From: Alphaproteobacteria bacterium
GTDB taxonomy: Bacteria > Pseudomonadota > Alphaproteobacteria > UBA6615
Length of the DNA: 64,000 nt
Direction: 5' to 3'
Assembly (NCBI GenBank): GCA_965261585.1
Contig: CBDHDN010000078.1
Location: 5,640 to 69,639, forward strand
Part shown: positions 2,812-49,270 of the stretch, piece after piece
How the letters are laid out: each line of letters opens with the position of its first letter
How positions within the stretch are numbered: the first letter of the stretch is position 1
Made by a program: the position numbers and the translations under genes
Notes under the pieces: model-generated
Databases searched by the model: none
What the model was told of the DNA's origin: nothing
The model's input: the letters and a program-made list of their open reading frames with translations, nothing else

Positions 2812-4104
<1,293 letters not shown>

Positions 4105-6302: not shown

Positions 6303-6308
6303 GGCGCC

Positions 6309-11673: not shown

Positions 11674-11745
11674 TGGTCCTCCCAACCGCCGGGCCGGCGG
11701 TCTTGATCTCGCGGCAGACTTCCGATAGGGACTCTACCCGCGGCG

Positions 11746-18973: not shown

Positions 18974-20484
18974 GGCGCCGCTCCGCCCAGCAGGCTCATG
19001 TAGCTGGCGGCGGATGTGGTGGTCACCTGGGCCCGCGGCAGATAGGGATAAACGTTCAAGTCGAGCCGGGGGGGTCGACGCTCGACGCGACACAGCACCA
19101 GGTGCTTGACCGCATCATAGCCGATGGCGCCTAACCGCAGGGCATCGCGGATGGCACCGTGCACCTCCTCAAGGGCAAAGGTCTCCAGAAGACGGAGCAC
19201 TTGCACGTACTCCCGCTTGCCGGCCTTGCCCATGCGGGCTTCAAGCAAGCGGCGCAGGTTGGCGTACGCCTCGGGCAGCTTCCAACCGGCCAGCGGGGCG
19301 GCTTGATCGAGGGCACCGATCTTCCGCTCCAGCAAGGCCAGATAGTGGATCGGCTCGAAGATCAGGTCCTCTCGTTCGTAAGAGCGTGGGTGCCGGGCGA
19401 TGACCTCGGCGGCGCAGCCGATGACCACCTCGTGCACGTAGCCACGGACCCAGACCTCTTGGTGACCGTAGGCGACGGGCACCGAGTAGTCGTTGCCCCG
19501 ATAGCGCACCAGGGAGAGCGAATTGACCCGCGTGCCCTCCTTGTCGCAGGCCTCGAAAGGCGCCGGCGGCAATTCCATCAGCTTCTCCCGGTCGCATCCG
19601 AACCGCTCGCCGATGGTCTCGCGATGGCCGCGCAAGACGTCGCTTTCCCGTCTCCGACATTGATGTTCCAGGTGAGCGTTGAAGGCGTCCCAGCTCGCAA
19701 ACCGGGGGATGGGAACCATGAAGTTCCGGCGGGCGTAACCGACCAGCCCCTCCACCTTGCCCTTATCATTGCCCTTGCCGGGGCGGCCATATCGATCCTG
19801 GAACAGATAATGGGATTGAAGCCCGCTGAACGCTCGCGTTCGTTGCCGCGTGCCGTCCGGCAGGATGCGCGACACCAGGCACTTGTCATTGTCGTAGAGA
19901 ATCGATTGGGGAATGCCGCCGAAGAAGGCGAAGGCCCCGTTGTGGCCGTCCAGCCAGGCCTCCGTCGCCGCCGCCGGGTAGGCCGCAACGAAGCAGGCAT
20001 CGCTGTGGGGAAGGTCCATGGCGAAAAAATGCGCCCGCCGCTTGACGCCGGCGATGATCGCATCCGCCTCGCCAAAGTCCGCCTGAGCGTGACCCGGAGG
20101 GTGCGCCAGCGGCACGAACATCTCACGCTGGCGACGGCGCCGTTCCCGGACGTAATCCTTGACGATGGTCTGTTTGCCCGCAAAGCCATGCTCGTCGCGA
20201 AGACGCTCGAATATCCGCTTCGCCGTGTGGCGCTGCTTGCAGTGAACCGTTCGGTCCTCTTCCAGAATACGGTCAATGATATCCCTGAAGGGGTCCAGCT
20301 TCGGGCGCTTCGGTGGCTGGCGGCGGCGGTAGCCAGGCGGCTCCGAGTGCCCGAGCATCTTCCTCACCGTCTCTCGCGCTATGCCAAACCGACTCGCCGC
20401 CTCTCGCTGACTCAGCCCATCAACATGGCACGCCAGCCGAACGCGTAGATAAAGGTCCACGGTATACATCCTCCCACCTTCCAT
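18970..20484 (-). CDS. istA: IS21-family transposase IstA
   Basis: 504 aa with an HTH followed by an rve/DDE core (HAQADFGE, YDNDKC, GKGNDKGKVEG). Confidence 0.9.
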   Translation of the reverse strand: MEGGRMYTVDLYLRVRLACHVDGLSQREAASRFGIARETVRKMLGHSEPPGYRRRQPPKRPKLDPFRDIIDRILEEDRTVHCKQRHTAKRIFERLRDEHGFAGKQTIVKDYVRERRRRQREMFVPLAHPPGHAQADFGEADAIIAGVKRRAHFFAMDLPHSDACFVAAYPAAATEAWLDGHNGAFAFFGGIPQSILYDNDKCLVSRILPDGTRQRTRAFSGLQSHYLFQDRYGRPGKGNDKGKVEGLVGYARRNFMVPIPRFASWDAFNAHLEHQCRRRESDVLRGHRETIGERFGCDREKLMELPPAPFEACDKEGTRVNSLSLVRYRGNDYSVPVAYGHQEVWVRGYVHEVVIGCAAEVIARHPRSYEREDLIFEPIHYLALLERKIGALDQAAPLAGWKLPEAYANLRRLLEARMGKAGKREYVQVLRLLETFALEEVHGAIRDALRLGAIGYDAVKHLVLCRVERRPPRLDLNVYPYLPRAQVTTTSAASYMSLLGGAAP

Positions 20485-20805: not shown

Positions 20806-23445
20806 ATGATTCAGCAACTCCTTTTTGACAAGATCGACCAACGGGTAGCACTAGACAAAGAGGACGGCGACTACGCCTATTTTCATGCGCTGTCCCTAAA
20901 GCTGGAGTTCCTCACGAAGATTGTTACTTCCGGTGTGGTCGCGTGTGTTGGTGAAGACGTCGATCGGTACCGATATTCTCTTGAGCACAAGCTTGTTCGA
21001 GCAGATTCGCTCGGCGAGTTGATAGAGGCACTCAATTCGGCGCTGATTGGCCCACCAGCTCAATTTCTTGACTCTGACGCGCATATCGTCTCAAGGGATC
21101 TGACAGTACGAGTCGATCCGGGTGATTGGCGACACTCAGCTGTAACCGACTTACATCAAGCGGCAGCGGCGGTCGGCGCGGAGGCGATGCTGGGTGAGAA
21201 AGTGGCTCTAAGGCAGTTTTTCGAAATCGCCGTGCAGCTGCGGAACAGAAGCCGTGGTCATGGAGCGCCCACGAGTGAACAATGCAGTAAGTCTTGTACG
21301 TACTTGTCTAGTGCCCTAACCATCTTGGAACAGAACCTCAAATTTTTTCGCCTTCCATGGGTTTACTTGCACCGAAATTTGTCAAGCAAGTACCGTGTGT
21401 CATCACTTCTGAACAACTCTTCATCATTCGACTACCTCAAGAGGAGCCGTGACGTACGGCTGCCAGATGGCGTTTTTTTCAGCCTGAACGACCAGGAAGA
21501 TACAGCACGTCCCGTGCATGTCCCTCTGATCTTCAGCGACGCTGACGTACTCGATGTTGCCCTTCCCAATGGTAACCATAAGGCAAGCACCTTCGAAACT
21601 ATCTCGTACGTGACGAACGAAGTCCAACGACGAGACGGATCGGCATGGTCAAGTCCACCTGCTCGCCTCCCCAAGAGCGAGACCGAAGGCGAGGCAGTGC
21701 TTGAGATTCAGGGCAATTTATTCACGAATGCACCCAAGAAACCCTTTGGCTACGTTCAACGGATTGATCTAGAAAACCGTCTACGCGAGGAGCTTCTCAA
21801 ATCAGATCAGCACCCAATAATTTCACTTACAGGTCCCGGAGGCATCGGTAAGACTACCATTGCAATCGCAGCAATACAGCGAATCTCTGACCGAGAGCCT
21901 GTACCCTATCAGGTAATCCTATGGATCAGCGCCCGAGACATTGATCTACTTGATTCGGGTCCCAAACCAGTATCACAAAAGGTGTTTACGCAGCGAGATA
22001 TTGCGCATGCCGCGATTGATTTGGTGGAACCATCTGAAAAGTCGTCAAACGATTTTGAGCCGGACATATATTTTCAAAAGTGTCTCGCACACGGCGCAGC
22101 AGGAACCACTTTGTTCGTTCTCGACAATTTCGAGACTGTGGAGAACCCAGCGGATGTTTTCAGCTGGATTGACTCTCACATCAGGCTTCCGAACAAGATC
22201 CTAATCACAACTCGATTTCGGGATTTTGTGGGCGACTACCCAATTGATATTCGCGGAATGTCCGATGACGAAGCAGACAAGCTAATCGATCAACATGCCT
22301 CTCGCCTCAATATAGAGAAATTGTTGAGCATCTCGTACCAAGAGGAACTAATTCGAGAATCTGATCGACATCGATACGTCATAAAGATTCTCCTCTGTCA
22401 GGTTTCTAAAGATGGAAACGCCGGAAAACCAAAACGATTTGTCGCAACTTCTGATCGTCTACTTGACGCTCTTTTCAAGAGGACCTTTTCTTCTCTAAGT
22501 CCCGCTGGTCAACGCGTTTTTCTTCTGCTTTGCAGTTGGAGAGTTGTCGTTCCAGAAGTGGCTGTCGAAGCTGTGTCGCTTCGGCCTAGCACCGAACGGT
22601 TTGACGTGGCAGCGGCCTTGGACGAATTGCGTCTATTTTCTCTTGTCGACCAGATCGTCTCCGAAGAGGAGCGGTCCACGTTTGTGGGTGTGCCATTGGT
22701 GGCGGCGATGTACGGTCGGCGGGAGTTGGAGGTGAGTCCGTTCAAGGTTGCAGTCGAAGAAGACCGAAAGCTCTTGATGGAGTTCGGCGCCGGAAAACGA
22801 AGTGACACTCAGCGGGGAGTTCTACCACGAATTGATAACCTCATTCGGGCTGTCGCGAAACGAGCGAGCAGCAGCCCGACGGACCTTGAAGAGGCCCTTC
22901 CAGTACTGGAATACCTGGCAACTAGGTTTCCGATGGCGTATCCCACACTCGCCAAGTTAGTGAGGGAAGTAGACGACTCCGATCAATCGATCGATCGGGC
23001 GAAGGGGTACATGGAGAACTTTTTGCAGACTGCGGCAATCCCGGCTCGACTGGATGCGTGGCAGGAACTCGCGTACCTCCGTCGATTGAGCAAGGACCCG
23101 ATGGGAGAGGTTCACGCGCTCTGCGAGGCGGCGCTGCTTTCCGCGTCGGATCGGGAGAAGCTCAGCTCGTTCGCGAATCAACTGAATAATCGCATTCGAG
23201 ACCTGAAAGAGCAAAGTGTCGGAGATGGTTGGCACGAAGGTGTGCGCGAGCTCCTAGCTAAAGTCATCGAAGTAATGCAGAAACAAATCAAGGGTCTGTC
23301 GGCTACCGATTGTTCTCGACTCGCCTGGCTTCTCCTCAACATTGGCAATTCGGAACGGGCGCTCGACGTGGCCAAAACCGGAATTCAACGAGAGTCGAGC
23401 AATGAATACTGCCAAAGGCTGATTTTAAAGCTGGAATCCCACTGA
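20806..23445 (+). CDS. NB-ARC-type STAND NTPase with an unknown ~330-aa N-terminal domain and a C-terminal helical-repeat region (candidate antiviral NLR/Avs-like protein)
   Basis: Walker A is LTGPGGIGKTTIA (about nt 21826-21864), Walker B is TLFVLDNFE, and NB-ARC-like KILITTRFRD and MSDDEADKL are present. The gene is visibly more AT-rich than its flanks and is bracketed by IS remnants. Confidence 0.75.
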   Translation: MIQQLLFDKIDQRVALDKEDGDYAYFHALSLKLEFLTKIVTSGVVACVGEDVDRYRYSLEHKLVRADSLGELIEALNSALIGPPAQFLDSDAHIVSRDLTVRVDPGDWRHSAVTDLHQAAAAVGAEAMLGEKVALRQFFEIAVQLRNRSRGHGAPTSEQCSKSCTYLSSALTILEQNLKFFRLPWVYLHRNLSSKYRVSSLLNNSSSFDYLKRSRDVRLPDGVFFSLNDQEDTARPVHVPLIFSDADVLDVALPNGNHKASTFETISYVTNEVQRRDGSAWSSPPARLPKSETEGEAVLEIQGNLFTNAPKKPFGYVQRIDLENRLREELLKSDQHPIISLTGPGGIGKTTIAIAAIQRISDREPVPYQVILWISARDIDLLDSGPKPVSQKVFTQRDIAHAAIDLVEPSEKSSNDFEPDIYFQKCLAHGAAGTTLFVLDNFETVENPADVFSWIDSHIRLPNKILITTRFRDFVGDYPIDIRGMSDDEADKLIDQHASRLNIEKLLSISYQEELIRESDRHRYVIKILLCQVSKDGNAGKPKRFVATSDRLLDALFKRTFSSLSPAGQRVFLLLCSWRVVVPEVAVEAVSLRPSTERFDVAAALDELRLFSLVDQIVSEEERSTFVGVPLVAAMYGRRELEVSPFKVAVEEDRKLLMEFGAGKRSDTQRGVLPRIDNLIRAVAKRASSSPTDLEEALPVLEYLATRFPMAYPTLAKLVREVDDSDQSIDRAKGYMENFLQTAAIPARLDAWQELAYLRRLSKDPMGEVHALCEAALLSASDREKLSSFANQLNNRIRDLKEQSVGDGWHEGVRELLAKVIEVMQKQIKGLSATDCSRLAWLLLNIGNSERALDVAKTGIQRESSNEYCQRLILKLESH

Positions 23446-23660: not shown

Positions 23661-23920
23661 TGACGTCAGCGCCTTTGGGACAAATTGAGGTAATTGCATA
23701 ACGGGGGATTTCTGGCTCATCGTAGTGACCAAAGGGAACGAAGATGAGACAGAAATCAATGAGCAAGAACGACCCGGCGGAGAAAACGGTTCGGGATATT
23801 CGGCGCAAGACACGCAAGCAGTATACGGCTGAGGAGAAGATCCGGATCGTGGTGTCGGGCCTGCGCGGCGAGGAGAGCATCGCCGCCTTGTGCCGCCGCG
23901 AGGGCATCGCCGAGGGTCTG

Positions 23921-25839
23921 GTGCGCCAGGCGAACTGACAGAAGGTAGGGGGTGCAAGTCCCCCGGAACGAAGGAGTAACCGAACCACGTTTCTCCGCGA
24001 GCCGTGCGTTGGCTCCCGTGAGGGGGCAGGCGAAGCGTCGGTAGCGGCATGGATGGGCAGGGCTATTGAGCACCGTAAAAGCGATGGTCCGGGGTGCCGA
24101 GGCTTTCAGATCGGTCGAAGGCAATATTGCAGGCGTCGTTTTGGTGAGATGTCGGCGAGCCCCGCGGTGTCAGAGAACCCATGCACGTTCGCACGCCTTC
24201 TGTTGGGACCCTGGGAGGTCTTCAAACTGCCCCGGTTGTCGTAAAGGGGCCGCGTAGGGAATGGAGAAAACCGAAGCCTATGATGAACGGTTTGAAGAAG
24301 TCGGATGAGGCCGTACGACCTGTGAGGGCGGCGAACAAGGGAGCGCGAGCTTCTGCGGAGTCGCCGGAGGAAAGGGCCTCAACCAAGGGGAATCCGGATT
24401 GCCAAAGCACGCGCCGAACCCAGTGTCGGGTGAGCGTGCCACAGGCGGCGGCCCGGATACGGAAAGCTGCAGAGAGAAACCCGAAGGAACGTCTCACTGC
24501 GCTCTTCCACCACATTACGCCGGACGCGCTCGGTGCGGCCTACTTCGCATTGAAGAAGGACGCAGCAGCCGGTGTCGACGGCGTTACGTGGGACATGTAC
24601 GGCGAGGGTCTGGATGAGCGCCTGCTCGACCTGCACCGGCGCCTGCACAGAGGGGGAGCGTACCGGGCGCCACCGGTTCGGCGGGTAGAGGTACCCAAGC
24701 CGGACGGGGGGACACGACCGCTCGGGATCGCGGCGCTGGAGGACAAGGTCGTCCAGAAGGCGGTTGTGGATGTGATCCTGACACCGATCTACGAGGTGGT
24801 GTTTCTTGGCTTCAGCTACGGGTTCCGACCGGGGCGGGGGGCGCACGATGCGCTCGATGCCCTGGCCTTCGGGATAGAACGGCGCAAGGTCAGCTGGATA
24901 GTCGATGCAGACCTCCGGGCGTACTTCGACACGATCCCGCGGGATTGGTTGATCACGTTCCTAGAGCACCGCATCGGAGACAGGCGGGTCATCCGTCTGA
25001 TCCGGAAATGGCTGAACGCCGGCGTCATAGAGAGTGGGTCATGGGCAGATACGGGTATGGGCACGCCGCAGGGGGCAATAGTCTCCCCCGTCTTGGCGAA
25101 CGTGTTCCTGCATTACGTGCTCGACGTGTGGTTCCACAAGAAATGGCGCCCGAACGTCCCGGATGGCGAAGCGATCATCGTCCGTTACGCTGACGATATC
25201 GTTGTCGGGTTCCAACACAAGCGGGATGCGGAGCGGTACCTCCGCGACGTTCGGGAGAGGCTGGCCCGGTTCGGTCTCAGCCTCCACCAGGACAAGACCC
25301 GCCTCGTGGAGTTTGGCCGGTTCGCGGATTTGAACCGGCGCCAGCGCGGGGTGGGCAAGCCGGAGACTTTCGACTTTCTGGGCCTCACGCACTATTGCAC
25401 GACGACCCTGAGAGGACGCTTTCGGCTTGGTCGCAAACCGGTTGCCAAACGGGTCAACAGGACCCTGGCGCGCATCGACGAGGTGCTTCGCAAGCGCTGG
25501 CACCACGACATCTGGGAAGTTGGTAGGTGGCTGGGGCGAGTCTGCAATGGCTGGCTCAACTACTTTGCCGTCCCAGGGTCAGGCCGGTTCATCCGTGCGT
25601 TCCTCCGCAGGCTGCAACGCCGGTGGATGCGGGCGCTACGCCGCCGGTCCCAGCGAGCCCGATTTAGTTGGAAGCGATTGGAGCGCATGACCGAAATCCT
25701 GTGGCCACGCGCCTCCATCCGCCACCCATGGCCGGACCAGCGGTTCGCCGTCAAGCACCCGAGGTAGGAGCCGGATGGTTCAACGACCACGTCCGGATCT
25801 GCGCGGGGGGTGCGCAGCAATGCGCATTCCTACCGTAAC
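23921..25839 (+). mobile_element. group II intron, copy 2 (1919 bp)
   Basis: Same ends and length as copy 1. It is inserted between GGTCTG and TATTAC of IS3 orfA, in the same orientation as the host gene. Confidence 0.85.
24181..25767 (+). CDS. group II intron reverse transcriptase/maturase
   Basis: 528-codon ORF that differs from copy 1 by one residue (I to V in AAG[I/V]DGVTW). Confidence 0.9.
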   Translation: MHVRTPSVGTLGGLQTAPVVVKGPRREWRKPKPMMNGLKKSDEAVRPVRAANKGARASAESPEERASTKGNPDCQSTRRTQCRVSVPQAAARIRKAAERNPKERLTALFHHITPDALGAAYFALKKDAAAGVDGVTWDMYGEGLDERLLDLHRRLHRGGAYRAPPVRRVEVPKPDGGTRPLGIAALEDKVVQKAVVDVILTPIYEVVFLGFSYGFRPGRGAHDALDALAFGIERRKVSWIVDADLRAYFDTIPRDWLITFLEHRIGDRRVIRLIRKWLNAGVIESGSWADTGMGTPQGAIVSPVLANVFLHYVLDVWFHKKWRPNVPDGEAIIVRYADDIVVGFQHKRDAERYLRDVRERLARFGLSLHQDKTRLVEFGRFADLNRRQRGVGKPETFDFLGLTHYCTTTLRGRFRLGRKPVAKRVNRTLARIDEVLRKRWHHDIWEVGRWLGRVCNGWLNYFAVPGSGRFIRAFLRRLQRRWMRALRRRSQRARFSWKRLERMTEILWPRASIRHPWPDQRFAVKHPR

Positions 25840-26097
25840 TATTACAGCTGATCGAAAGAGTTTTTGGAAGCGGGCAAGAAGCGGCTCGCCGGCGACACCG
25901 GGCGCCAAGCGACCTCGGGCGAGGTTAAAGGCCTGCGCCAGGAGATGCGCGACTTGAAGGAGTTGGTCGCCGAACTTTCGCTGGAGAACCGTCTTTTCAA
26001 CAAAAGCATGATCGGGCATGGGGGAGACGCGGAATGAGGTATCCCGCATCCGAGAAGCTGGAGATCATCCGCCTGGTCGAGCAGTTGAGAACGGCGA

Positions 26098-26889: not shown

Positions 26890-27726
26890 GGTACGGCCTA
26901 TAACGGCCATTTCGGCTGCACCTGCTATCACCCGCTTTTCGTGTTCAATCAGTTCGGCGATCTGGAGCGGTGCGGCCTTCGTCCCGGCAACGTGCACAGC
27001 GCCCACGAGTGGCGCGATGTGTTGGAACCGGTGGTCGCTCGTTACCGCAACAGGACACTCCGGCGCTACTTCCGTGGCGACGCCGCCTTTGCCTCACCCG
27101 AAGTCTACGAGTTTCTCGAAGCCGAGGACTTCAGCTACGCCATCCGGCTCCCCGCAAACAAGGTGCTGCAAGGCAGCATCGCCCATCTGCTGAAACGCCC
27201 CGTCGGCAGGCCGCCCAATGATGTTCGCCGGTATCATGCCGGCTTCAGCTATCAGGCCGCGACCTGGGACAAACCCCGCCGCGTCGTCGCCAAGGTCGAG
27301 TGGCATCCTGGTGAGTTGTACCCGCGCGTCGGGTTAATTGTAACCAACCTGAGCCGACCCACCGAGCGGGTCGTCGCATTCTACAATCAGCGCGGCACGG
27401 CCGAGCAATGGATCAAGGAAGGCAAGAACGCGATCAAGTGGACACGCCTGTCGTGCCGCAAGTTCCGTCACAACGCCGTCCGGCTCCAACTCCACGCGCT
27501 CGCCTATAATCTCGGCAACTTCATGCGGACACTCGTGTTGCCCGTTGCAGTGGAGCAGTGGTCACTGACCACGCTGCGCGAAAAGCTCGTCAAGATCGGC
27601 GCGAAGATCGTCCGCCACGGTCGCTGCATCGTCTTCCAGATGGCCGAGGTCGCTATCCCTCGTGACCTGTTCGCCGACATCCTCCGCCGAATCGATCGGC
27701 TCAGAACGACGCCCCTCCCAACATGA
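26890..27726 (+). pseudogene. 5'-truncated IS1380-family transposase
   Basis: Contains YNGHFGCTCYHPLFVFNQFGDLERCGLRPGNVHSA..., EQWIKEGKNAIKWTRLSC and the C-terminal RIDRLR. A stop sits directly upstream and about 190 N-terminal codons are missing. Confidence 0.75.
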
Positions 27727-27801: not shown

Positions 27802-28607
27802 GGTGCTGTCAACTTAACGAAGGCAGGTCGCAGTTGAACGTCTGAACTGAGCGGCTCAAGCAGCAGCGGTCACGGTCCGCCACGTGTTCATCGCGTCACC
27901 GCGGAATTGGCGCATTGTCTTGCGAGTGATCAGATGACGTTGGACATTGAAGGTGTTGTAGATGGCGGCGTGGGTGGAGAGAAACCTTTGCGCCGATCCT
28001 GATGACTTGAAGCCCTGCATCCTGCGTTCTCGTTGTCGAACCGGCAGGTGCGAATTCTCCGCCCGATTGTTGCTCCGTCCGCCGGTAACGTGTTTCCCCG
28101 TCATGTTGAGATCACGCAATGCTGCCCCGTAAGATGGCAGTTTATCGGTCACCACCTTATTCGGCGCATACCCCTGCTTCTTGAGCAGTTTGCGCATCAG
28201 CTTGAGTGCTGCTTTCTTGTTCCTCCGGGACTGAACCAAGATATCCAGCACCTCACCCTCGCTGTCCACCGCCCGCCATAGATACATCCGTTTTCCGTTG
28301 ATGGAGGAAAACACCTCATCAAGATGCCACCGGTCGTCTGGTCGAGGGCGTGATTGTCTCAGTTTTCGGGCATAGACCTGCCCAAACTTTAAAGACCAGC
28401 GCCGTATCGTCTCGTAAGAAACATCGACACCACGTTCAGCGAGCAGATCCTCCACATCGCGGTAACTGAGCGGAAACCGGAAACACAGCCAGACGGCGCG
28501 CTGGATTATCTCTGCAGGAAACCGATGTCGGCGGTAGCTGATCTTGTTCATAACAGGAAGCTACTCGCCACCCGCAGCTGACACCAGCCAGTTACCGTGA
28601 CAGCACC
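27802..28607 (-). mobile_element. IS6-family insertion sequence (about 806 bp)
   Basis: Terminal inverted repeats are GGTGCTGTCAAC (27802-) and GTGACAGCACC (ending at 28607). The element has a single transposase gene and a size typical of IS6/IS26-like elements. Confidence 0.8.
27856..28551 (-). CDS. IS6-family transposase
   Basis: 231 aa. The signature runs YRRHRFPAEII...WHLDEVF..ING...YLWRAVD...TDKLPSY...NNRAENSH. Confidence 0.9.
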   Translation of the reverse strand: MNKISYRRHRFPAEIIQRAVWLCFRFPLSYRDVEDLLAERGVDVSYETIRRWSLKFGQVYARKLRQSRPRPDDRWHLDEVFSSINGKRMYLWRAVDSEGEVLDILVQSRRNKKAALKLMRKLLKKQGYAPNKVVTDKLPSYGAALRDLNMTGKHVTGGRSNNRAENSHLPVRQRERRMQGFKSSGSAQRFLSTHAAIYNTFNVQRHLITRKTMRQFRGDAMNTWRTVTAAA

Positions 28608-29001
28608 TCTGGGGGCGCTATTGCCGCACCAGGCCGAGCTCGTTGGTCGCGTGGCCGAAGGTCTCATAGGGGCTTGGCAGACAGAACTTGGAGACGTCCG
28701 GACCGGCACTGCGGCCGCCGCACCGCAACTCGTAGACCTTGCCGTCACTCTTCACCGCTTGGGTTCCTGAGACGCAGGAAATCGGTACGGTCTTGTTCGA
28801 GCGGTTGATTGAAATCGACGCGTGGGAGGCGCGCAAGACGATGGACGAGATCGACAACAGGTTCTTGGACGAAGCACCGCCGCGGCGGCGGAGGCTTGCG
28901 CGGCGAAGCCGTGCCCGAAACCGAGGTGTGCGTCGGCACGGGGACCCAAAGACATCTTAGTCTCGATCGCCACGATGCTCGCTCACGCCAGGCGGGTGGG
29001 G

Positions 29002-29763
29002 CTAGTACGTCGCCCGGCCGCCGGATACGTCGAAGACGGCGCCGGTCGAGAACGAGCAGTCCTCGGTGCACAGCCAGACCACAAGGCGGGCCACATCCTC
29101 GGCCTCGCCGAGCCGTCCCATGGGGATGCCGTCGTTGGTGTCCAGCACGTGCTGGAGGTGCGACTCGCTCAACTGGTCGAGGAACTGGGTGCGAACCGCC
29201 GACGGAGTCACGCAGTTGACCAGCACGCCGTCGCCCACGACCTCCTTGGCGAGCGACTTGGTGAAGCCCATGACGCCGGCCTTGGCGGCGGCGTAGGCGG
29301 GGCAGCCGGCCGGGCCTTCCTTACCGGCGATCGAGGAGAGGTTGACGATGCGACCGTAGCCGCGCTCCATCATCCCCGGCACCACCGTCTTGGAGCACAG
29401 GAAGGCGCTGGTAAGGTTGGCGGCGACGACGTAGTTCCAGTCCTCGAGCGCGTACTCCCAGGTCCGGACCGTGGGGCCCGAGAGACCGGCGTTGTTGACC
29501 AGAATGTCGATACCGCCGAAACGCTCGACGGTGGTGGCGCACGCCGTCTCGATCGCGTCGGGGTCGGTGACGTCCGCGGTGGCGGTGTCCAACGGACCGC
29601 CGTCGCCAAGCTGGGCGGCGGCGGTCTCGAGCGCCGCGGCGTTGATGTCCCACAGCATGACGCTCGCGCCCGCGGCCAATTGGCGCTCGGCGATGGCCCG
29701 GCCTATGTCTCCGGCGCCGCCAGTGACCACGGCGATGCGTCCTTTGAGGTCGTAAGCGTTCAT
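29002..29763 (-). CDS. SDR-family oxidoreductase (FabG-like)
   Basis: TGGAGDIG cofactor motif, NNAG, and the S...YxxxK catalytic motif (AYAAAKAG). The start is set at MNAYDLKG (29763), which has an upstream GAGGAGG. Confidence 0.85.
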   Translation of the reverse strand: MNAYDLKGRIAVVTGGAGDIGRAIAERQLAAGASVMLWDINAAALETAAAQLGDGGPLDTATADVTDPDAIETACATTVERFGGIDILVNNAGLSGPTVRTWEYALEDWNYVVAANLTSAFLCSKTVVPGMMERGYGRIVNLSSIAGKEGPAGCPAYAAAKAGVMGFTKSLAKEVVGDGVLVNCVTPSAVRTQFLDQLSESHLQHVLDTNDGIPMGRLGEAEDVARLVVWLCTEDCSFSTGAVFDVSGGRATY

Positions 29764-29902
29764 CGGCGGCGCCTCCTCAAGCAGGGCCTTGAGCCCACGC
29801 CCGAAGCTTATATCAACGCTCGGCCAAGTCAACAAATCGCCGGCCGGCCGAATTTTGCAAGGCCTGTTCGAGGATGCTGCAATCATTGATGTTTTCGAAG
29901 GG

Positions 29903-30100
29903 TCAGGCCGTGCCGAGCGGGGCCCATTTCAGGAATGAGGGGATCTCCGAGGAACCACCGGAATTCAATGACCTGGCCCCCGCAGGCAACGGACGGCGAA
30001 AACGGGCACGCAGATAGACCTGCGCGCCGATCTCCATCTCCTGAAGGAGTCGTTCTGCTTCCCAGTGTACCTTGATGAACCGATCGGATCGCCGTGCCAT
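29903..30100 (-). pseudogene. possible remnant of a CapP/ImmA-like partner gene of the XRE regulator
   Basis: 65-codon ORF whose ATG directly abuts the XRE gene's stop (TAGATG). The N-terminus (..EAERLLQEMEIGA..) is reminiscent of COG2856/ImmA-type starts. No HExxH metallopeptidase core remains. Confidence 0.25.
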
Positions 30101-30463
30101 CTACTCCCCCTTCCTCTTCTTTTCCTTCGCCTTGCTTGCCAACATCTGAACGAAATCGTCGGCCATTTCCTGGTATTCGGCCGACAGGCCAGCATAGTGG
30201 CGGTGGAGTTGGTTGGCGCTGACAGCAGAGCCCTCCATCTCCTTGGTGCGCCCAAGCAGATAGTCCGTCGTCACCCTCAGCGCGTCGGCGAGACGCTTCA
30301 GATTGTCGAAGGACGGCTTGCGCGTCCCAGTCTCGAAGTGGGAAACGGCCGAAGCTTGAAGGTGCGCACGCTCCGCAAGCTCGCCCTGGGTGAGCTCCCT
30401 GAACTCCCGCGCTGTGCGCAGCCGCTCCTTGAACATGTCCGTCGGTTTGGTTGACTTCTCCAT
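30101..30463 (-). CDS. XRE-family HTH transcriptional regulator (CapH-like position next to CBASS-like operon)
   Basis: 120 aa with the HTH_3 signature LRTAREFRELTQGELAERAHLQASAVSHFETGTRKPSFDNLKRLADAL. It is divergent from the nucleotidyltransferase operon. Confidence 0.8.
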   Translation of the reverse strand: MEKSTKPTDMFKERLRTAREFRELTQGELAERAHLQASAVSHFETGTRKPSFDNLKRLADALRVTTDYLLGRTKEMEGSAVSANQLHRHYAGLSAEYQEMADDFVQMLASKAKEKKRKGE

Positions 30464-30532
30464 TACGTTACCGTATATTGAAACTTGACGCCTTCGCCAT
30501 TCCCGCCGGGCGCATTCTTTTGGCTGGACCAA

Positions 30533-30546
30533 TGACGAATTCGTCA
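30533..30546. promoter_or_regulatory. perfect 14-bp palindrome TGACGAATTCGTCA in the divergent promoter region (candidate operator)
   Basis: Lies 42 nt upstream of the DUF2188-like ATG and 70 nt upstream of the XRE ATG. It is the only perfect palindrome seen in the 124-bp intergenic region. Confidence 0.4.
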
Positions 30547-30587
30547 CAGCATGCAATACATTTTGCGAAACCGCAAGGAGACTGGAC

Positions 30588-30821
30588 ATGAGCAAGGGAC
30601 CCACGACCCACCACGTCGTCCCGAACCCTGACGGGGGCTGGGACGTGAAGCGCGGCGGCGCAAGCCGCGCAAGCAGCCACCACGACACCAAGCAGGACGC
30701 CATCGCTCGCGGTCGGCAGATCAGCCGCAATCAGGGAACTGAGTTCCGCATCCACAACAAGGATGGACGGATCGCCGACAGTGACAGCCACGGCAACGAC
30801 CCGCACCCGCCCAAGGGCTAG
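30588..30821 (+). CDS. DUF2188-like small protein
   Basis: 77 aa (HHVVPNPDGGWDVKRGGASRASSHHDTKQDAIARGRQISRNQGTEFRIHNKDGRI). An AAGGAG RBS is present. It is the first gene of the operon. Confidence 0.6.
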   Translation: MSKGPTTHHVVPNPDGGWDVKRGGASRASSHHDTKQDAIARGRQISRNQGTEFRIHNKDGRIADSDSHGNDPHPPKG

Positions 30822-30840
30822 AAAAGGAGAGCGTCTGCGG

Positions 30841-32358
30841 ATGACGGTACAGAAACACACTGAAGAGCTTCTTGAAGACCTGGCGGCATCCCTACAGGTG
30901 CCGCCAAGTCGCTATGAAGCCGCGGAGCGCGCCTACAAGTCTGTGGGTGAGTGGTTGCACCGGGCAGCGTCGCGCGTCCGGCTGGCAAACCCCAACATTT
31001 ATGTTCAAGGGTCGTTCCGGCTCGGAACGGCCATTCGTTCCATGTCGGACATGGAAGACTACGACGTTGATCTGGTCTGTGAGCTATCGCTATCAAAGAC
31101 ACAACTGACGCAAGCTCGGTTGAAGGCGTTACTTGGAGACGAGCTTCGTTCCTATGCCGAAGCGCACGGCATGAAGGAGCCGGAAGAAAGCCGTCGTTGC
31201 TGGACGCAGGACTACGCGGATGGGGCGCAGTTTCATATAGACACCCTCCCCGCACTACCCGATGCGGCGGGCCAGCGCCTGATATTGGCGCAGCGTGGCT
31301 TCTCCGACGAATGGGCAGACAACGCCATAGCCATTACGGACAGGGACGATCCGAATTTCAGGCAGCTCACAGAAGACTGGCCGCACAGCAATCCCAAGGG
31401 CTACGCGAACTGGTTCCGCTCGAAAATGCGTGAGGTCTTCGATGCGCGTCGCCGGGCTCTGGCGCTGGAGGCCCGTGCAAGCGTCGAGGATATTCCCGAG
31501 CATCGGGTACGCACACCGCTTCAGAGCGCCATACAGATTCTCAAGCACCACCGCGATGTGATGTTCTCGGAGCGGGTCGACGATAAGCCGATCTCCATCA
31601 TCCTGACGACACTGGCTGCCCATGCCTATCAGCAAGAACCGACAATTTCGGGCGCGCTCTACAGCATCCTCGACCGAATGGACACGCATATCGACTACAG
31701 CACCGGTGTGGCCTGGATAGCCAATCCCACCGACCCGGCCGAGAACTTCGCCGATCGCTGGCAGGAATATCCGAAACGCGAGGAGGCCTTTCGAGAATGG
31801 CTGGATCGGGCTCGCGAGGACTTTGCCGCCGCGGCTCAATCACGGAATCGCGAGACGGCCACTGCCGCCTTGCAGCCTCGGCTTGGACGAAACCTTATGG
31901 AGGCCGCCGCTGCGCATCGCCGCGGCTCACCATTGGCGCAGATTGTCAATAGTGCACGTCTCCTGCTCAACCCCGCACACCGCAAGACACCCCCGTGGAT
32001 CCGAGTCGATCAGGGTGAAGTGCGTATTGAGAAAGCGACAATGCAGCGCAATGGCTTTCGGTCTGAGATATTCCGCAGTGACGGCGACCCGCTGCCAAAG
32101 CGTTGTAGCCTCGTATACCAGGCCGACACGGATATCCCGAGACCTTTCAAGGTGTACTGGCAGGTGGTGAACACCGGCCGGGAGGCGGAAGCAGCCAACG
32201 GTCTGCGCGGTGGCTTCGATGAGGGACTTGTGACCGCCGGGAAGCTCACCAAGAAAGAGACCACGCTCTACACCGGGAGGCACAGCATCGAGTGCTTCGT
32301 CGTCAAGGCCGGCTACTTGGCAGCCCGGAGCAGCCAGTTCATCGTTAATATTCAATAG
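30841..32358 (+). CDS. CD-NTase/SMODS-type nucleotidyltransferase with C-terminal AGS-C-like sensor extension
   Basis: Pol-beta NTase signature: GS in YVQGSFRLGT (31009-), DxD in DYDVDLV (31057-), and a third acidic residue in FHIDTLPALP (31231-). A roughly 130-aa beta-rich C-terminal domain follows. The start is set at MTVQKH, which has an AAAGGAGAG RBS. Confidence 0.7.
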   Translation: MTVQKHTEELLEDLAASLQVPPSRYEAAERAYKSVGEWLHRAASRVRLANPNIYVQGSFRLGTAIRSMSDMEDYDVDLVCELSLSKTQLTQARLKALLGDELRSYAEAHGMKEPEESRRCWTQDYADGAQFHIDTLPALPDAAGQRLILAQRGFSDEWADNAIAITDRDDPNFRQLTEDWPHSNPKGYANWFRSKMREVFDARRRALALEARASVEDIPEHRVRTPLQSAIQILKHHRDVMFSERVDDKPISIILTTLAAHAYQQEPTISGALYSILDRMDTHIDYSTGVAWIANPTDPAENFADRWQEYPKREEAFREWLDRAREDFAAAAQSRNRETATAALQPRLGRNLMEAAAAHRRGSPLAQIVNSARLLLNPAHRKTPPWIRVDQGEVRIEKATMQRNGFRSEIFRSDGDPLPKRCSLVYQADTDIPRPFKVYWQVVNTGREAEAANGLRGGFDEGLVTAGKLTKKETTLYTGRHSIECFVVKAGYLAARSSQFIVNIQ

Positions 32359-32372
32359 GACCGCATACCATT

Positions 32373-32729
32373 ATGACCCTGCTCCAGCACTTCATCAGGT
32401 CGTTGATCGATTGGGTGTTCAGACGGCGCTCTCCCGCGCTGTTGATTATGCAAATCGGCCTTGCCTGTCTGGCGCTTGCATTTGGTGCCGGCTGGGCATT
32501 GGACGTCTCATTCCCGTTTCAGGGGGGCCATATCGATGTTGGCCTTGACAGTGCAGGCGGCACACCGATCGTGCTGGTCTGGACAGCGGCAACCATCGGG
32601 CTGGGCCGGATTGGCGCGGGATTTGTCTGGAGATTATTCGCTACAGTGCGGAGCAACGCCGCCTCGCTCGGAAAAGGATTATCGTCGTTGAGGCTCGGGG
32701 ATTGCGCGATACCGGCGGTGCGCCCTTGA
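32373..32729 (+). CDS. 2-TM membrane ORF (possibly the N-terminal part of a 2TM-SAVED effector)
   Basis: Two hydrophobic helices (ALLIMQIGLACLALAFGAGWAL; TPIVLVWTAATIGLGRIGAGFVW). The 3' end overlaps the SAVED-like frame, which is itself open from 32549. Confidence 0.5.
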   Translation: MTLLQHFIRSLIDWVFRRRSPALLIMQIGLACLALAFGAGWALDVSFPFQGGHIDVGLDSAGGTPIVLVWTAATIGLGRIGAGFVWRLFATVRSNAASLGKGLSSLRLGDCAIPAVRP

Positions 32730-33463
32730 TCGAATCCCTTCCCTCAAGGTTCCAAGGACAACGAGATCAAGTCCTTGTTGATTTGCGCCAGCGGGTCAAG
32801 GATGGCGAGATCGTCGCGCCGGAAGCGGCGCTTGAGGATCTGATCTCGCTGCCCGCCGACTTGAAGCGGAGAGAGAATGGCTATGATCGCCGCGACCTCA
32901 CGCTCGTCTACGGCGGACTGATGCCGGTGCCGTTTACGTTTCTGACCGGCGTGCTGATCGATGACGAAGGGACGGCCTTTATCCTGGACTGGGATCGACA
33001 CGCCGAAGCTTGGCGTGAACTCAACGGCGTGGATGACGGCAAGCGCTTTCGGGCAGCCGGCCTAGACGATGTACCGGTTGGCACAAAGGAAGTCGCGTTG
33101 GCGGTATCAGTATCCTACGGCGTGAACGCCGATGATATTCGGGCTCAGGTTCGTAACATGCCAGTTGTCAAGCTTTTCCTCGAGGACGGCTCACCGGACT
33201 GCCACTGGTCGGAGCAAAAGCAGCGTGCTCTTGGCAGACAATTTCTTGAAATGGCAACTGCCCTTGGCAATCGCGGCGTGCGCCGTATCCACCTGTTCCT
33301 TGCGGCCCAGAACAGCATCGCTTTTCGCTTCGGCAGGCTTTATGACAAGCGCAACCTGCCTGAGGTCGCCGTCTATCAGTATCAGAGGAACACTTTTCCA
33401 CCCTATCCGTGGAGTGTCCTGATGCCCGTATGCGGAATTGATCGGCCTACGACCATTTTGTGA
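32702..33463 (+). CDS. SAVED-like domain protein (candidate CBASS effector sensor module)
   Basis: The C-terminal block RIHLFLAAQNSIAFRFGRLYDKRNLPEVAVYQYQR and the upstream LVYGGLMPVPFTFLTGVL are typical of SAVED/CARF-like repeats. Only a TTG start is available, and the upstream in-frame sequence (..KRIIVVEARGL) looks coding. Confidence 0.6.
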   Translation: MRDTGGAPLIESLPSRFQGQRDQVLVDLRQRVKDGEIVAPEAALEDLISLPADLKRRENGYDRRDLTLVYGGLMPVPFTFLTGVLIDDEGTAFILDWDRHAEAWRELNGVDDGKRFRAAGLDDVPVGTKEVALAVSVSYGVNADDIRAQVRNMPVVKLFLEDGSPDCHWSEQKQRALGRQFLEMATALGNRGVRRIHLFLAAQNSIAFRFGRLYDKRNLPEVAVYQYQRNTFPPYPWSVLMPVCGIDRPTTIL

Positions 33464-33805
33464 ATTTCTGCCGATCTACATAAAATTCCGCACGATTTCG
33501 GCAGAAGACAACGAGAATGAGATTCCCTTTTCCAACCGGATTCCTTGCTACTTCAGATCAACAAACGCACTTAGTTTCCGCAATCTACGGCGCCATTGGA
33601 TGCACGAGTCACTTATGTTTCTCTTGATTTGCCATCTTGCAAATAGCGGTGTCGGGAAACGCCCGTCAACCCATTGTGCCTGCTTGGTTTTCCCCGCCAT
33701 TGCGCCCGGACATCCAGGATCGCCGTCATCGCACCGAAACCGCCCGGATTCAACATCCCGGGCGTCCCTGGCCCCGCTTGTCCCCGATCCTTGACCAGCT
33801 CCGCG

Positions 33806-34099
33806 TCACGACCCATTCCCGTCATTCACGGCATCCTTGAGCGGCTTGCCCGGCTTGAATGCCGGCGCCGTCGACGCCTGTATCTCCAGGCTCTCGCCTG
33901 TCCCCGGATCTCGCCCGGTACGGGCGGGCGGGCTCTTCGTCGTGAACGTCCCGAATCCGCCGATCCTCACCTCCTCGCCATTTGCCAGGGCCTCGCCCAC
34001 CGCCTCGAACACAGCGTCCACCGCGTTCCCGCCCGCTGAGACCGGCTCAGGCCTATCCGGTCTGCCACAGGACCGCCGATGTCCCGGCCCCGCTGCCAC
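33806..34099 (-). pseudogene. HU/IHF-family DNA-binding protein with disrupted N-terminus
   Basis: The C-terminal two-thirds is canonical (AVDAVFEAVGEALANGEEVRIGGFGTFTTK..GRDPGTGESLEI..PAFKPGKPLKDAV). The N-terminal helix 1 (..VADRIGLSRSQ) lies in another frame. Confidence 0.6.
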
Positions 34100-34146
34100 G
34101 ATCTCTGTCCGACAGTCCTCGCGGGGCGCAAACCCCCATCAACGCG

Positions 34147-34724: not shown

Positions 34725-35029
34725 GGAACTCTCGATGCAATGCTGCAGATCTCAAGGCCCATCCACAATTTGGCGGGCGGCTGATCAATGCGATGGGCAT
34801 GCGGGCCGAAGAAAGCGCCGCACGAGCCAGGAAGCTCCGCTGGCGCCGCAACGACCGCATGAGCGTCGCCAGCCGCGACGTCTTCGACTGGCTGCCGATC
34901 TTCGATCTCTCGACCCGGGATGTGTTCCGAGTCATCCGTGACGCCGGCCAGTCGCCGCACTGGGCCTATGCCGCCGGAATGTCGAGGCTGTCCTGCGTCT
35001 TCTGCATCATGGCCTCGCGTGCCGATCTG

Positions 35030-36948
35030 GTGCGCCAGGCGAACTGACAGAAGGTAGGGGGTGCAAGTCCCCCGGAACGAAGGAGTAACCGAACCACGTT
35101 TCTCCGCGAGCCGTGCGTTGGCTCCCGTGAGGGGGCAGGCGAAGCGTCGGTAGCGGCATGGATGGGCAGGGCTATTGAGCACCGTAAAAGCGATGGTCCG
35201 GGGTGCCGAGGCTTTCAGATCGGTCGAAGGCAATATTGCAGGCGTCGTTTTGGTGAGATGTCGGCGAGCCCCGCGGTGTCAGAGAACCCATGCACGTTCG
35301 CACGCCTTCTGTTGGGACCCTGGGAGGTCTTCAAACTGCCCCGGTTGTCGTAAAGGGGCCGCGTAGGGAATGGAGAAAACCGAAGCCTATGATGAACGGT
35401 TTGAAGAAGTCGGATGAGGCCGTACGACCTGTGAGGGCGGCGAACAAGGGAGCGCGAGCTTCTGCGGAGTCGCCGGAGGAAAGGGCCTCAACCAAGGGGA
35501 ATCCGGATTGCCAAAGCACGCGCCGAACCCAGTGTCGGGTGAGCGTGCCACAGGCGGCGGCCCGGATACGGAAAGCTGCAGAGAGAAACCCGAAGGAACG
35601 TCTCACTGCGCTCTTCCACCACATTACGCCGGACGCGCTCGGTGCGGCCTACTTCGCATTGAAGAAGGACGCAGCAGCCGGTGTCGACGGCGTTACGTGG
35701 GACATGTACGGCGAGGGTCTGGATGAGCGCCTGCTCGACCTGCACCGGCGCCTGCACAGAGGGGGAGCGTACCGGGCGCCACCGGTTCGGCGGGTAGAGG
35801 TACCCAAGCCGGACGGGGGGACACGACCGCTCGGGATCGCGGCGCTGGAGGACAAGGTCGTCCAGAAGGCGGTTGTGGATGTGATCCTGACACCGATCTA
35901 CGAGGTGGTGTTTCTTGGCTTCAGCTACGGGTTCCGACCGGGGCGGGGGGCGCACGATGCGCTCGATGCCCTGGCCTTCGGGATAGAACGGCGCAAGGTC
36001 AGCTGGATAGTCGATGCAGACCTCCGGGCGTACTTCGACACGATCCCGCGGGATTGGTTGATCACGTTCCTAGAGCACCGCATCGGAGACAGGCGGGTCA
36101 TCCGTCTGATCCGGAAATGGCTGAACGCCGGCGTCATAGAGAGTGGGTCATGGGCAGATACGGGTATGGGCACGCCGCAGGGGGCAATAGTCTCCCCCGT
36201 CTTGGCGAACGTGTTCCTGCATTACGTGCTCGACGTGTGGTTCCACAAGAAATGGCGCCCGAACGTCCCGGATGGCGAAGCGATCATCGTCCGTTACGCT
36301 GACGATATCGTTGTCGGGTTCCAACACAAGCGGGATGCGGAGCGGTACCTCCGCGACGTTCGGGAGAGGCTGGCCCGGTTCGGTCTCAGCCTCCACCAGG
36401 ACAAGACCCGCCTCGTGGAGTTTGGCCGGTTCGCGGATTTGAACCGGCGCCAGCGCGGGGTGGGCAAGCCGGAGACTTTCGACTTTCTGGGCCTCACGCA
36501 CTATTGCACGACGACCCTGAGAGGACGCTTTCGGCTTGGTCGCAAACCGGTTGCCAAACGGGTCAACAGGACCCTGGCGCGCATCGACGAGGTGCTTCGC
36601 AAGCGCTGGCACCACGACATCTGGGAAGTTGGTAGGTGGCTGGGGCGAGTCTGCAATGGCTGGCTCAACTACTTTGCCGTCCCAGGGTCAGGCCGGTTCA
36701 TCCGTGCGTTCCTCCGCAGGCTGCAACGCCGGTGGATGCGGGCGCTACGCCGCCGGTCCCAGCGAGCCCGATTTAGTTGGAAGCGATTGGAGCGCATGAC
36801 CGAAATCCTGTGGCCACGCGCCTCCATCCGCCACCCATGGCCGGACCAGCGGTTCGCCGTCAAGCACCCGAGGTAGGAGCCGGATGGTTCAACGACCACG
36901 TCCGGATCTGCGCGGGGGGTGCGCAGCAATGCGCATTCCTACCGTAAC
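35030..36948 (+). mobile_element. group II intron, copy 3 (1919 bp)
   Basis: Same ends and length as copies 1 and 2. It is inserted between GATCTG and TATACG. Confidence 0.85.
35290..36876 (+). CDS. group II intron reverse transcriptase/maturase
   Basis: The protein is identical to the copy 2 ORF. Confidence 0.9.
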   Translation: MHVRTPSVGTLGGLQTAPVVVKGPRREWRKPKPMMNGLKKSDEAVRPVRAANKGARASAESPEERASTKGNPDCQSTRRTQCRVSVPQAAARIRKAAERNPKERLTALFHHITPDALGAAYFALKKDAAAGVDGVTWDMYGEGLDERLLDLHRRLHRGGAYRAPPVRRVEVPKPDGGTRPLGIAALEDKVVQKAVVDVILTPIYEVVFLGFSYGFRPGRGAHDALDALAFGIERRKVSWIVDADLRAYFDTIPRDWLITFLEHRIGDRRVIRLIRKWLNAGVIESGSWADTGMGTPQGAIVSPVLANVFLHYVLDVWFHKKWRPNVPDGEAIIVRYADDIVVGFQHKRDAERYLRDVRERLARFGLSLHQDKTRLVEFGRFADLNRRQRGVGKPETFDFLGLTHYCTTTLRGRFRLGRKPVAKRVNRTLARIDEVLRKRWHHDIWEVGRWLGRVCNGWLNYFAVPGSGRFIRAFLRRLQRRWMRALRRRSQRARFSWKRLERMTEILWPRASIRHPWPDQRFAVKHPR

Positions 36949-37128
36949 TATACGGCCGCGCAATTGCAGCCGGCGCTTTATCGCCAATACGCCAACCTCA
37001 AAGAGCGCATCGGCCACACGCTGTCGCCGTCGGCCATACCTTTGACCCGACTCACCGGCGTCCCTCTGTAGCCAGCCGCCGTGGCGGCCCTGGGCAACGT
37101 GGCCGGCCCGCTCCGATCGCGACGCCGG

Positions 37129-48961: not shown

Positions 48962-49270
48962 CCCGATGTGGCGGCGCCGATCACCCACAGGCCGAAGGCG
49001 CCCATGGACAGGCCCTTGAGCAGCGCCGTCCCGGCGCGCGCGCAGGCCCATGGACAGCACGAACAGGGTGATGGCGTAGTTCGCCGAATCGCCCAGGAAG
49101 TCCAGCGCATCGGCCTGCAGGGAGACCGAGCCGGCGATCAGACCGGCAACCGCCTCGACGACGAACATGGTGGCGTTGACGGCCAGCGCCAGCCACAGGA
49201 CGCAGCGGTAGCGCGTGTCCGTCGTGGCCGCGCCGTCGGTGTCGTCCGGGCAATGGGTACAGCCGGCCAC

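Follow-up and report, generated by a model that had tools for sequence, protein, structure and literature searches.

The locus and its genes

Here we describe a small immune locus at the centre of a stretch of 64,000 nucleotides from an alphaproteobacterium (contig CBDHDN010000078.1; the whole stretch is called the window in what follows). The locus carries the genes of a CBASS, an antiphage system that signals by cyclic oligonucleotides. On the minus strand lie capH, which encodes an XRE-type helix-turn-helix (HTH) repressor, and the remnant of a second gene, capP. Divergent from these, a plus-strand operon encodes a DUF2188 protein, a nucleotide cyclase and an effector that is split over two open reading frames (ORFs). 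The original prediction, which was made from the letters alone, had placed all of these ORFs correctly. It read them as a minimal type I CBASS with three unusual features, namely the DUF2188 leader gene, the shortened partner of the repressor and the split effector. The features are listed in Table 1.

The cyclase matches the PADLOC Cyclase profile PDLC00770 over its full length (E = 5.9e-209) and the Pfam DncV-like_NTFase model (2.6e-09). Residues 1 to ~365 form the cGAS/DncV-like nucleotidyltransferase (CD-NTase) core. The catalytic signature proposed by eye is borne out here, as G57-S58, D75/D77 and D134 lie within QGSFRLG, YDVDL and FHID motifs that align with those of VcCdnG (PDB 9WOO) and SmCdnG (8HSB). 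These are also the nearest solved structures, at 2.9e-81 and 4.9e-27 respectively. The C-terminal extension is, as had been suspected, an AGS-C domain: residues 394-505 (32020-32355) match AGS_C (PF18134) at 8.4e-27, with 94.1 bits against a cut-off of 26.7. Such a fusion is not unusual: AGS-C is found in ~40% of type I CBASS, branches of clade G among them (bioRxiv 10.1101/2023.05.21.541620).

The two effector ORFs are halves of one gene. The first matches Saf_2TM (7.6e-14, profile positions 1-87 of 152), and the second, 32702-33463, matches SAVED (8.1e-41) together with the tail of Saf_2TM (positions 111-152). Jointly they cover positions 3-96 and 113-362 of the 370 in PADLOC PDLC00707, the '2TM effector'. 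The core of the locus is a type I CBASS, with a CD-NTase and an adjacent SAVED effector and without Cap2/Cap3 or HORMA/TRIP13 genes. Nothing except DUF2188, the cyclase and the effector lies between capH and the HU-family gene on the right, and the gene calls of the related contigs L041-L046 agree. A comparison of the other large ORFs of the window with PADLOC gave no further defence genes.

Table 1. Features of the CBASS locus and of its borders (positions in the window)
Feature	Position	Strand	Evidence
capP remnant (65-codon ORF)	29903..30100	-	tblastn matches and end of blastn homology
capH, XRE-type HTH repressor, 120 aa, intact	30101..30463	-	PADLOC capH, Pfam HTH_3
Divergent control region, 124 bp	30464..30587		sequence inspection, promoter scan
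DUF2188 leader gene, 77 aa, intact	30588..30821	+	Pfam PF09954, PADLOC PDC-S16
CD-NTase with AGS-C, 505 aa, intact	30841..32358	+	PADLOC Cyclase, Pfam AGS_C
Effector 5' fragment, Cap14-type	32373..32729	+	Saf_2TM
Effector frameshift site	32629..32630	+	alignment with five close relatives
Effector 3' part, linker and SAVED, shifted frame	32631..33463	+	SAVED profiles; mechanical ORF from TTG 32702
IS6-family element, left boundary marker, outside the system	27802..28607	-	NCBIfam transpos_IS6 6.1e-68
SDR/FabG-like oxidoreductase, intact	29002..29763	-	NCBIfam FabG-type matches 7e-69
HU-family gene, frameshifted, right boundary	33806..34131	-	Pfam Bac_DNA_binding 1.5e-22

Intact relatives and the control region

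We compared this locus with two sets of relatives. A scan of one genome per species gave 40 cyclase relatives. Six of these (L002-L007), from Alphaproteobacteria, Pseudohongiella, Solibacteraceae and Mesorhizobium, keep the order of capH and, divergently, DUF2188, cyclase and 2TM-SAVED effector, at cyclase identities of 65-78%. In L002, L003 and L007 a gene for a 291-aa HEIGH metallopeptidase lies directly downstream of capH. The second set, the metagenome contigs L041-L046, came from an exact-match protein search with a DUF2188 of 97% identity, and its DNA is 97-99% identical to window 30022-33478. The cassette is complete in L041-L043, L045 and L046, with capP (291 aa, Peptidase_M78), capH (120 aa), DUF2188 (77 aa), cyclase (505 aa) and effector (363 aa). 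An HU gene and then a PAPS-reductase-like gene follow the cassette. The intact layout is capP-capH leftward and DUF2188 - cdn(AGS-C) - cap14-like effector rightward.

The repressor matches PADLOC capH (8.6e-21, profile positions 3-100 of 103) and Pfam HTH_3 (1.1e-12). Like CapH, it is a small XRE-HTH protein, with a putative C-terminal oligomerisation region, encoded divergently from an immune operon. The window copies of CapH and of the cyclase are each 99.2% identical to those of L042.

In the control region between the divergent genes, 30533-30546 is a perfect palindrome of 14 bp (TGACGAATTCGTCA), and a related site (TGACGCCTTCGCCA) occupies 30486-30499. The zero-spacer palindrome was found by eye and with a script, and was missed by an inverted-repeat tool. 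It is kept in L002, L007 and L047 and has one mismatch in L003, all of them relatives at 66-79% cyclase identity. We regard both sites as putative CapH operators. A promoter-like TTGACT-17-TATATT lies on the plus strand at 30451-30479, and an AGGAGA ribosome-binding site precedes DUF2188.

A probable decayed copy of a gated cassette

The capP gene of the window is a stump. By tblastn the 65-codon ORF matches the N-terminal 26-51 residues of the HEIGH peptidases (291 aa) that L002, L003 and L007 encode. Codons 1-26 (30023-30100) are truly collinear with these, and patchy similarity continues to about codon 51 (~29948), beyond which the window is unrelated to them. In blastn comparisons with L041-L047 homology to every relative ends at 30022, which is codon 26, and the 65-codon 'partner' is thus what is left of capP. 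The HExxH motif has gone with the remainder of the 291-aa protein, and a tblastn search recovered no second CapP-like sequence within the window. The M78/ImmA-IrrE HExxH peptidase that the relatives encode directly downstream of capH is therefore missing here. The lesion is a deletion or rearrangement that ends at 30022 and is specific to the window copy. An adjacent deletion mediated by the IS6 element is not supported as its cause, since the end of the element at 28607 is 1.4 kb from the junction. No terminal repeat of an insertion sequence (IS) and no obvious repeat was found at the junction, 29950-30022.

The effector gene has lost a single base. Its 5' fragment (118 aa) consists of 86 native codons, which include two transmembrane (TM) helices, and 32 out-of-frame codons. 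At 32628-32632 the window has TGGAG, against TGGGAG in all five close relatives, and the frame is lost after W86. This missing G is window-specific and is the single indel in 30022-33478 in comparison with L042, L043 and L046. When one G is put back the gene encodes a 363-aa effector that is 97.8% identical to that of L042 and matches NCBIfam SAVED at 3.6e-48. Saf_2TM and SAVED then lie in one polypeptide, as they do in L041-L043, L045 and L046. Both the capP stump and the split effector are absent from contigs that are 99% identical to the window, and are therefore lesions of this copy. Two of the three features that the original prediction found unusual are accounted for in this way; all three are present, and the third, the DUF2188 leader, turns out to be a recurrent companion of the regulator (see below).

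A frameshift in a short homopolymer raises the question of whether the lesion is an error of assembly or sequencing. If so, the effector would be an intact 363-aa protein, CBASS would work at a basal, CapH-repressed level, and only DNA-damage inducibility would have been lost through the capP deletion. The missing base falls in a G run, the names of related contigs suggest 2-7x long-read assemblies, and the source of the window may likewise be a low-coverage long-read metagenome assembly, so that an error is conceivable and counts against a real lesion. The ease with which one restored G returns a full-length protein also speaks for an intact gene. Furthermore, Lau et al. found that E. coli MS115-1 can do without CapH/CapP in its protection against phage (bioRxiv 10.1101/2022.04.27.489752), and loss of capP alone would thus not necessarily kill defence.

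Against this stand four observations. The window contains three copies of a 1926-bp group II intron, two of them 100% identical and the third 99.6%, without a gap over 3.8 kb, which indicates a low indel error rate in this assembly. The effector has also gathered nine window-unique substitutions, four of them non-synonymous and including L79R in TM2, whereas the longer cyclase has three, all synonymous (Fisher p = 0.035). An excess of this kind would be expected if the gene were dead and selection on it relaxed. A neighbouring frameshift can be traced beyond the window. The HU gene has a 2-nt insertion at 34038-34039, and its Bac_DNA_binding match spans profile positions 23-90 alone. This region is syntenic with the relatives, and the insertion is absent in L041 and L045 and present in L043; because that contig is independent, the insertion is genuine and marks a lineage, and is not an error of assembly. 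Finally, other copies of the cassette are visibly disrupted as well (L044, L048 and L054). We consider an assembly error unlikely, and are fairly confident that the effector frameshift is real.

These and further disrupted copies can be described briefly. L054 has an IS within the cyclase (3254-6234), L044 has a rearranged or duplicated cyclase (3051-6417), and L048 (8791-9854) and L002 (7871-8630) have effector frameshifts at other positions. That near-identical or related copies are broken in different ways suggests frequent inactivation of the cassette.

It is scarcely credible that the split effector works as two polypeptides (2TM and free SAVED) or is restored by programmed ribosomal frameshifting: both halves are open, with a 28-nt overlap, and a -1 slip at the TGG codon would give exactly the native protein, but the SAVED ORF starts with TTG only and lacks an evident ribosome-binding site, the arrangement occurs in none of the close relatives, the other split copies (L002 and L048) break elsewhere, and frameshifting was rejected since GTC-TGG-AGA holds no slippery heptamer.

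Taken together, the locus is probably a recently decayed copy of a widespread and mobile type I CBASS cassette under transcriptional gating. Judged from its sequence, the window copy is most likely dead, with capH, DUF2188 and the cyclase still intact. With capP cut to a stump of 26-51 codons the repressor could presumably no longer be removed, and the 1-nt deletion after codon 86 would separate the TM helices from the SAVED sensor.

We propose the following working for an intact copy. CapH oligomers would bind two palindromes of the TGACG-N4-CGTCA type and repress the rightward operon. DNA damage or single-stranded DNA (ssDNA) would activate the M78 metallopeptidase CapP, CapH would be cleaved and the operon would be induced. 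This part is by analogy with E. coli MS115-1, where oligomers of CapH bind the promoter and CapP, once activated by ssDNA, cleaves CapH (bioRxiv 10.1101/2022.04.27.489752). DUF2188 would be the first cistron of the induced operon. The Ig-like AGS-C domain probably tunes phage sensing, and the cyclase would make a cyclic dinucleotide. This nucleotide would bind the SAVED domain of the 2TM effector, a membrane channel would open and infection would be aborted, as has been shown for Cap14, a nucleotide-gated chloride channel (Tak et al. 2023, PMC10402079).

Some points weigh against this account of the locus, in addition to the homopolymer and the dispensability of CapH/CapP already mentioned. 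The operator and promoter assignments are putative readings of the DNA. The mode of action of the cassette, that is its expression, the cleavage, the nucleotide product and phage defence, is argued from better-studied systems. The cyclase appears to be clade-G-like, an assignment taken from its best matches to solved structures. VcCdnG, the closest of these, is a clade G enzyme that produces 3'2'-cyclic GMP-AMP (cGAMP) (PMC12804361).

DUF2188 travels with the regulator

The leader protein of the operon matches DUF2188 over the whole profile (PF09954, 2.8e-26, 91.9 bits against a cut-off of 22, positions 1-62 of 62), which agrees with the original reading, and the PADLOC candidate PDC-S16 likewise (8.1e-38, positions 1-75 of 75). 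It has 1563 homologues in a database clustered at 90%; the best 120 clusters span several phyla, and none of them falls below 78% identity.

We surveyed the context of DUF2188 in 80 further metagenome loci with homologues at least 77% identical, picked by similarity and not a census. In 53 of the 59 loci with enough upstream sequence an HTH gene and an M78-type peptidase gene lie directly beside DUF2188. The regulator pair is divergent in 41 of these 53, co-directional in 11 and fused in one. The downstream cargo is interchangeable. Among the 60 loci with enough sequence we find 37 Bub operons, 16 CBASS, 1 Pycsar, 2 E2-E1-JAB fusion operons and 4 that are unclassified.

A good illustration is the series of operons that follow the same divergent arrangement of peptidase and HTH genes on one side and DUF2188 on the other. 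The cargo is a type I CBASS in loci such as L041-L043, a CBASS with patatin, CD-NTase and E2 in Devosia, a type III CBASS in loci that include the A. tumefaciens plasmid pAt1D1108a, and Bub ubiquitin-like operons in Maricaulis and Pacificitalea. On a Thalassospira chromosome (L061/L062, 3644-5234) the trio stands without cargo, and the next gene encodes a LysR regulator on the opposite strand. This trio may be a minimal or ancestral module.

Across cassettes the DUF2188 proteins are 79-81% identical, the CapH proteins 25-31%, the CapP proteins 28-31% and the cyclases 33%. Synonymous sites of DUF2188 are saturated (pS, the proportion of synonymous differences, is 0.71-0.96) and non-synonymous differences are few (pN 0.08-0.10). 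This points to long-term purifying selection and not to recent transfer. Among the residues that are kept are H8, H9, H31, H56, H68, D66 and D71. We conclude that DUF2188 belongs to the regulator cassette and travels with the regulator rather than with CBASS.

The association is not strict. Eleven relatives of the window cyclase have capH and/or capP without DUF2188, and L014 and L020 have DUF2188 without capH or capP. These loci speak against a fixed unit, and DUF2188 must be regarded as optional.

A further exchange concerns the whole module. L001 has the closest cyclase in the genome collection (86% identical) and an effector that is 83% identical, but no DUF2188. A WYL-domain (CapW/BrxR-like) regulator is encoded at 4193-5104 on its minus strand, where capH and DUF2188 would be. 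This is a swap of the regulator module on an otherwise conserved CBASS core.

Some side observations extend this picture. L075, L076, L129, L134 and L144 carry a third class of regulator pair, co-directional upstream of DUF2188 and Bub operons (e.g. L134 4823-6234). It consists of a 108-aa HTH protein and a 240-aa HEYGH peptidase with a weak Peptidase_M78 match (2.2e-4). In L149 the HTH and the peptidase are fused. Temperate phages of Streptococcus, Gordonia, Mycobacterium and Listeria also encode DUF2188 homologues, which are 47-61% identical (32 phage records). In Streptococcus phage Javan264 (L069 3489-3713) the gene lies between an antirepressor and an XRE regulator, and in M. abscessus prophages it is annotated 'antitoxin'. 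Distant homologues are found in 268 Klebsiella plasmid records.

Possible roles of DUF2188

What might such a protein do? Our best guess is a small protein, induced by damage and independent of the cargo, whose target is universal in cells or phages. A cargo-independent role would explain why DUF2188 stays at ~80% identity across Bub, CBASS types I-III, Pycsar and no cargo at all while the regulators diverge to 25-31%. The more specific proposal, that DUF2188 is the third, cargo-independent component or the ancestral payload of a CapH/CapP-type DNA-damage switch, is possible and we put it forward tentatively. On this view DUF2188 would be made first upon cleavage of the repressor, and its universal target might be ssDNA, a repair protein, a metal, the translation machinery or some factor common to phages.

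Structure prediction lends this no help. The AlphaFold2 model, with a predicted local distance difference test (pLDDT) of 76.3, consists of three strands followed by a helix and one more strand. Foldseek found nothing at E <= 0.001 among PDB structures (best E = 0.26), which counts against our proposal. A HicB-N-like fold had been proposed, and HicB antitoxins appear among the Foldseek matches at E = 0.3-4 only. Searches of PDB sequences, with the single sequence as well as with a profile of 9 sequences, brought no meaningful match; PDB 5JN6, which has been cited as a DUF2188 structure (PMC13621843), was not recovered.

An alternative is that DUF2188 is a genuine accessory of CBASS (a 'Cap' protein) that acts on the cyclase or on AGS-C, for instance as a sensor adaptor or an inhibitor. 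The gene arrangement invites this idea. DUF2188 lies 19 nt upstream of the cyclase in the window, and the two share an operon in the same order there, in L002-L007 and in L041-L054. In L014 DUF2188 heads a patatin-cyclase operon without capH, and a DUF2188 gene adjoins the Pa011 type II CBASS (bioRxiv 10.1101/2022.03.30.486325). That said, the cargo of close homologues is mostly not CBASS, with Bub in 37 of 60 loci, one Pycsar and the stand-alone trio, and L001 keeps a closely related cyclase and effector under its WYL regulator without any DUF2188. DUF2188 does not co-diverge with the cyclases either, being 79% identical where they are 33% identical. We therefore think an accessory role in CBASS quite improbable.

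The geometry of the locus suggests another possibility, that DUF2188 is a Cro-like counter-repressor which, made first once the operon is de-repressed, binds the shared operators and locks the switch on. As in the immunity switches of phages and of integrative and conjugative elements (ICEs), a repressor gene is divergent from a small first gene with two intergenic palindromes between them, and DUF2188 genes lie in early or lysogeny regions of Streptococcus prophages. The operators are wholly different between cassette classes (TGACGAATTCGTCA versus GTTCGG-N4-CCGAAC), and the CapH proteins have diverged to 25-31%, yet DUF2188 stays at ~80%, which argues against an operator-specific role. In addition, the regulator pair is co-directional rather than divergent in 11 loci, and the model (pLDDT 76) shows no DNA-binding fold. 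A Cro-like function is thus very improbable, and a cargo-independent protein that belongs to the switch remains our preferred interpretation.

Comparison with known systems

One of the closest known systems is the CapH/CapP CBASS of E. coli MS115-1. In both loci the genes for an XRE-HTH repressor and for a peptidase of the M78/ImmA-IrrE type lie upstream of the CBASS operon and are divergent from it. The E. coli system is of type III (HORMA/TRIP13/NucC), whereas that of the window is of type I with a 2TM-SAVED effector. The window also differs in having DUF2188 between promoter and cyclase and a capP that is a stump.

The enzymes can be compared in the same manner. The GS, DxD and D catalytic motifs are shared with VcCdnG and SmCdnG. 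VcCdnG has 396 aa, lacks AGS-C and is paired with Cap5 (HNH-SAVED), while the window cyclase has a 112-residue AGS-C domain and a 2TM-SAVED partner. The effector shares the Saf_2TM and SAVED architecture of Cap14, and once the gene is repaired it matches the PADLOC '2TM effector' over nearly its full length. Those Cap14 proteins that have been characterised are paired with CdnB enzymes, which make 2'3'-cGAMP; in the window the partner appears clade-G-like and the effector is frameshifted.

Operons with CapH/CapP, DUF2188 and non-CBASS cargo have been noted before (Lau et al. 2022, bioRxiv 10.1101/2022.04.27.489752). In their Fig. 6F operons, e.g. that of Tsuneonella flava, peptidase and HTH genes likewise stand divergent from DUF2188, which precedes nucleotide-signalling cargo. 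Their examples have non-CBASS cargo, either a guanylate cyclase with a TIR protein that binds cyclic nucleotide monophosphates (cNMP) or hypothetical proteins. The present analysis adds the occurrence of DUF2188 ahead of CBASS types I to III, of Bub and of Pycsar, as well as without cargo, and puts figures on its conservation. The DUF2188 cluster of Qipengyuania/Tsuneonella flava (P0027) is ~88% identical to the window protein. To our knowledge DUF2188 in CapH/CapP-type cassettes has been noted in print and never studied.

ImmR/ImmA and DdrO/IrrE are alike in that a damage-activated metallopeptidase cleaves an HTH repressor. They control the induction of ICEs and prophages or DNA repair regulons, unlike the immune cargo considered here. 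We know of no description of a conserved DUF2188 leader gene in either.

Genomic setting

The left side of the locus has been reorganised. The IS6-family element encodes a 231-aa transposase between GGTGCTGTCA terminal inverted repeats and is 99% identical by blastn to L041 381-1186. To its right a high-GC (guanine plus cytosine) segment of 1.4 kb (28608-30021) occupies the place of the DNA that flanks capP in the relatives. Their flanking genes (DUF2806 and small ORFs) are replaced by this segment, which carries the short-chain dehydrogenase/reductase (SDR) gene and has no blastn homology to L041-L046. The borders drawn in the original prediction, IS debris and an SDR gene on the left and a broken HU gene on the right, hold up with the IS6 element and the HU frameshift; the SDR gene itself is intact.

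The predicted dip in GC content holds in part. The block 29750-33750 has a GC content of 0.53-0.62, against 0.66-0.70 in the SDR segment and 0.65-0.70 beyond 37000. It is only partly distinctive, because the IS and intron sequences that lie further left have a GC content just as low. The suggestion that the islet was acquired horizontally fits the relatives of the cassette, which sit in mobile contexts with ICE or plasmid genes, integrases and IS elements. A megablast comparison of 29800-33600 with PLSDB plasmids gave no match.

Other mobile elements are common in the window. The three copies of the group II intron lie at 15578-17503, 23917-25842 and 35026-36951, each with an intact 528-aa reverse transcriptase gene. 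The last of them breaks synteny with the relatives beside a PAPS-reductase-like gene fragment (34749-35029). One more group II intron, the fourth, is unrelated to these and is found at ~47175-48967. There is a truncated IS at 26941-27726 on the plus strand (DDE_Tnp_1_4, profile positions 175-434 of 435), and on the minus strand a Mu/IS21-like transposase at 18970-20484 and an IS630-type (DDE_3) transposase at 44442-45512. Further left are a phage-portal-like ORF (12432-13490) and a tRNA (11745-11817). An 879-aa protein encoded at 20806-23445 (+) has an NB-ARC domain of the STAND (signal transduction ATPases with numerous domains) NTPase class (Pfam 6.1e-09) and no PADLOC match. It could be a candidate Avs-like defence gene in the same mobile-element-rich region.

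Significance

The locus itself is one more, degraded copy of a CapH/CapP-gated type I CBASS. It illustrates how fast toxic cassettes can be inactivated in genomes that are rich in IS elements and introns. The part worth following up is the leader gene. CapH/CapP, Bub, CBASS and Pycsar operons are being cloned with or without their DUF2188 first gene, and a conserved protein that travels with the switch and not with the cargo might influence how all of these systems are induced or reset, or how toxic they are.

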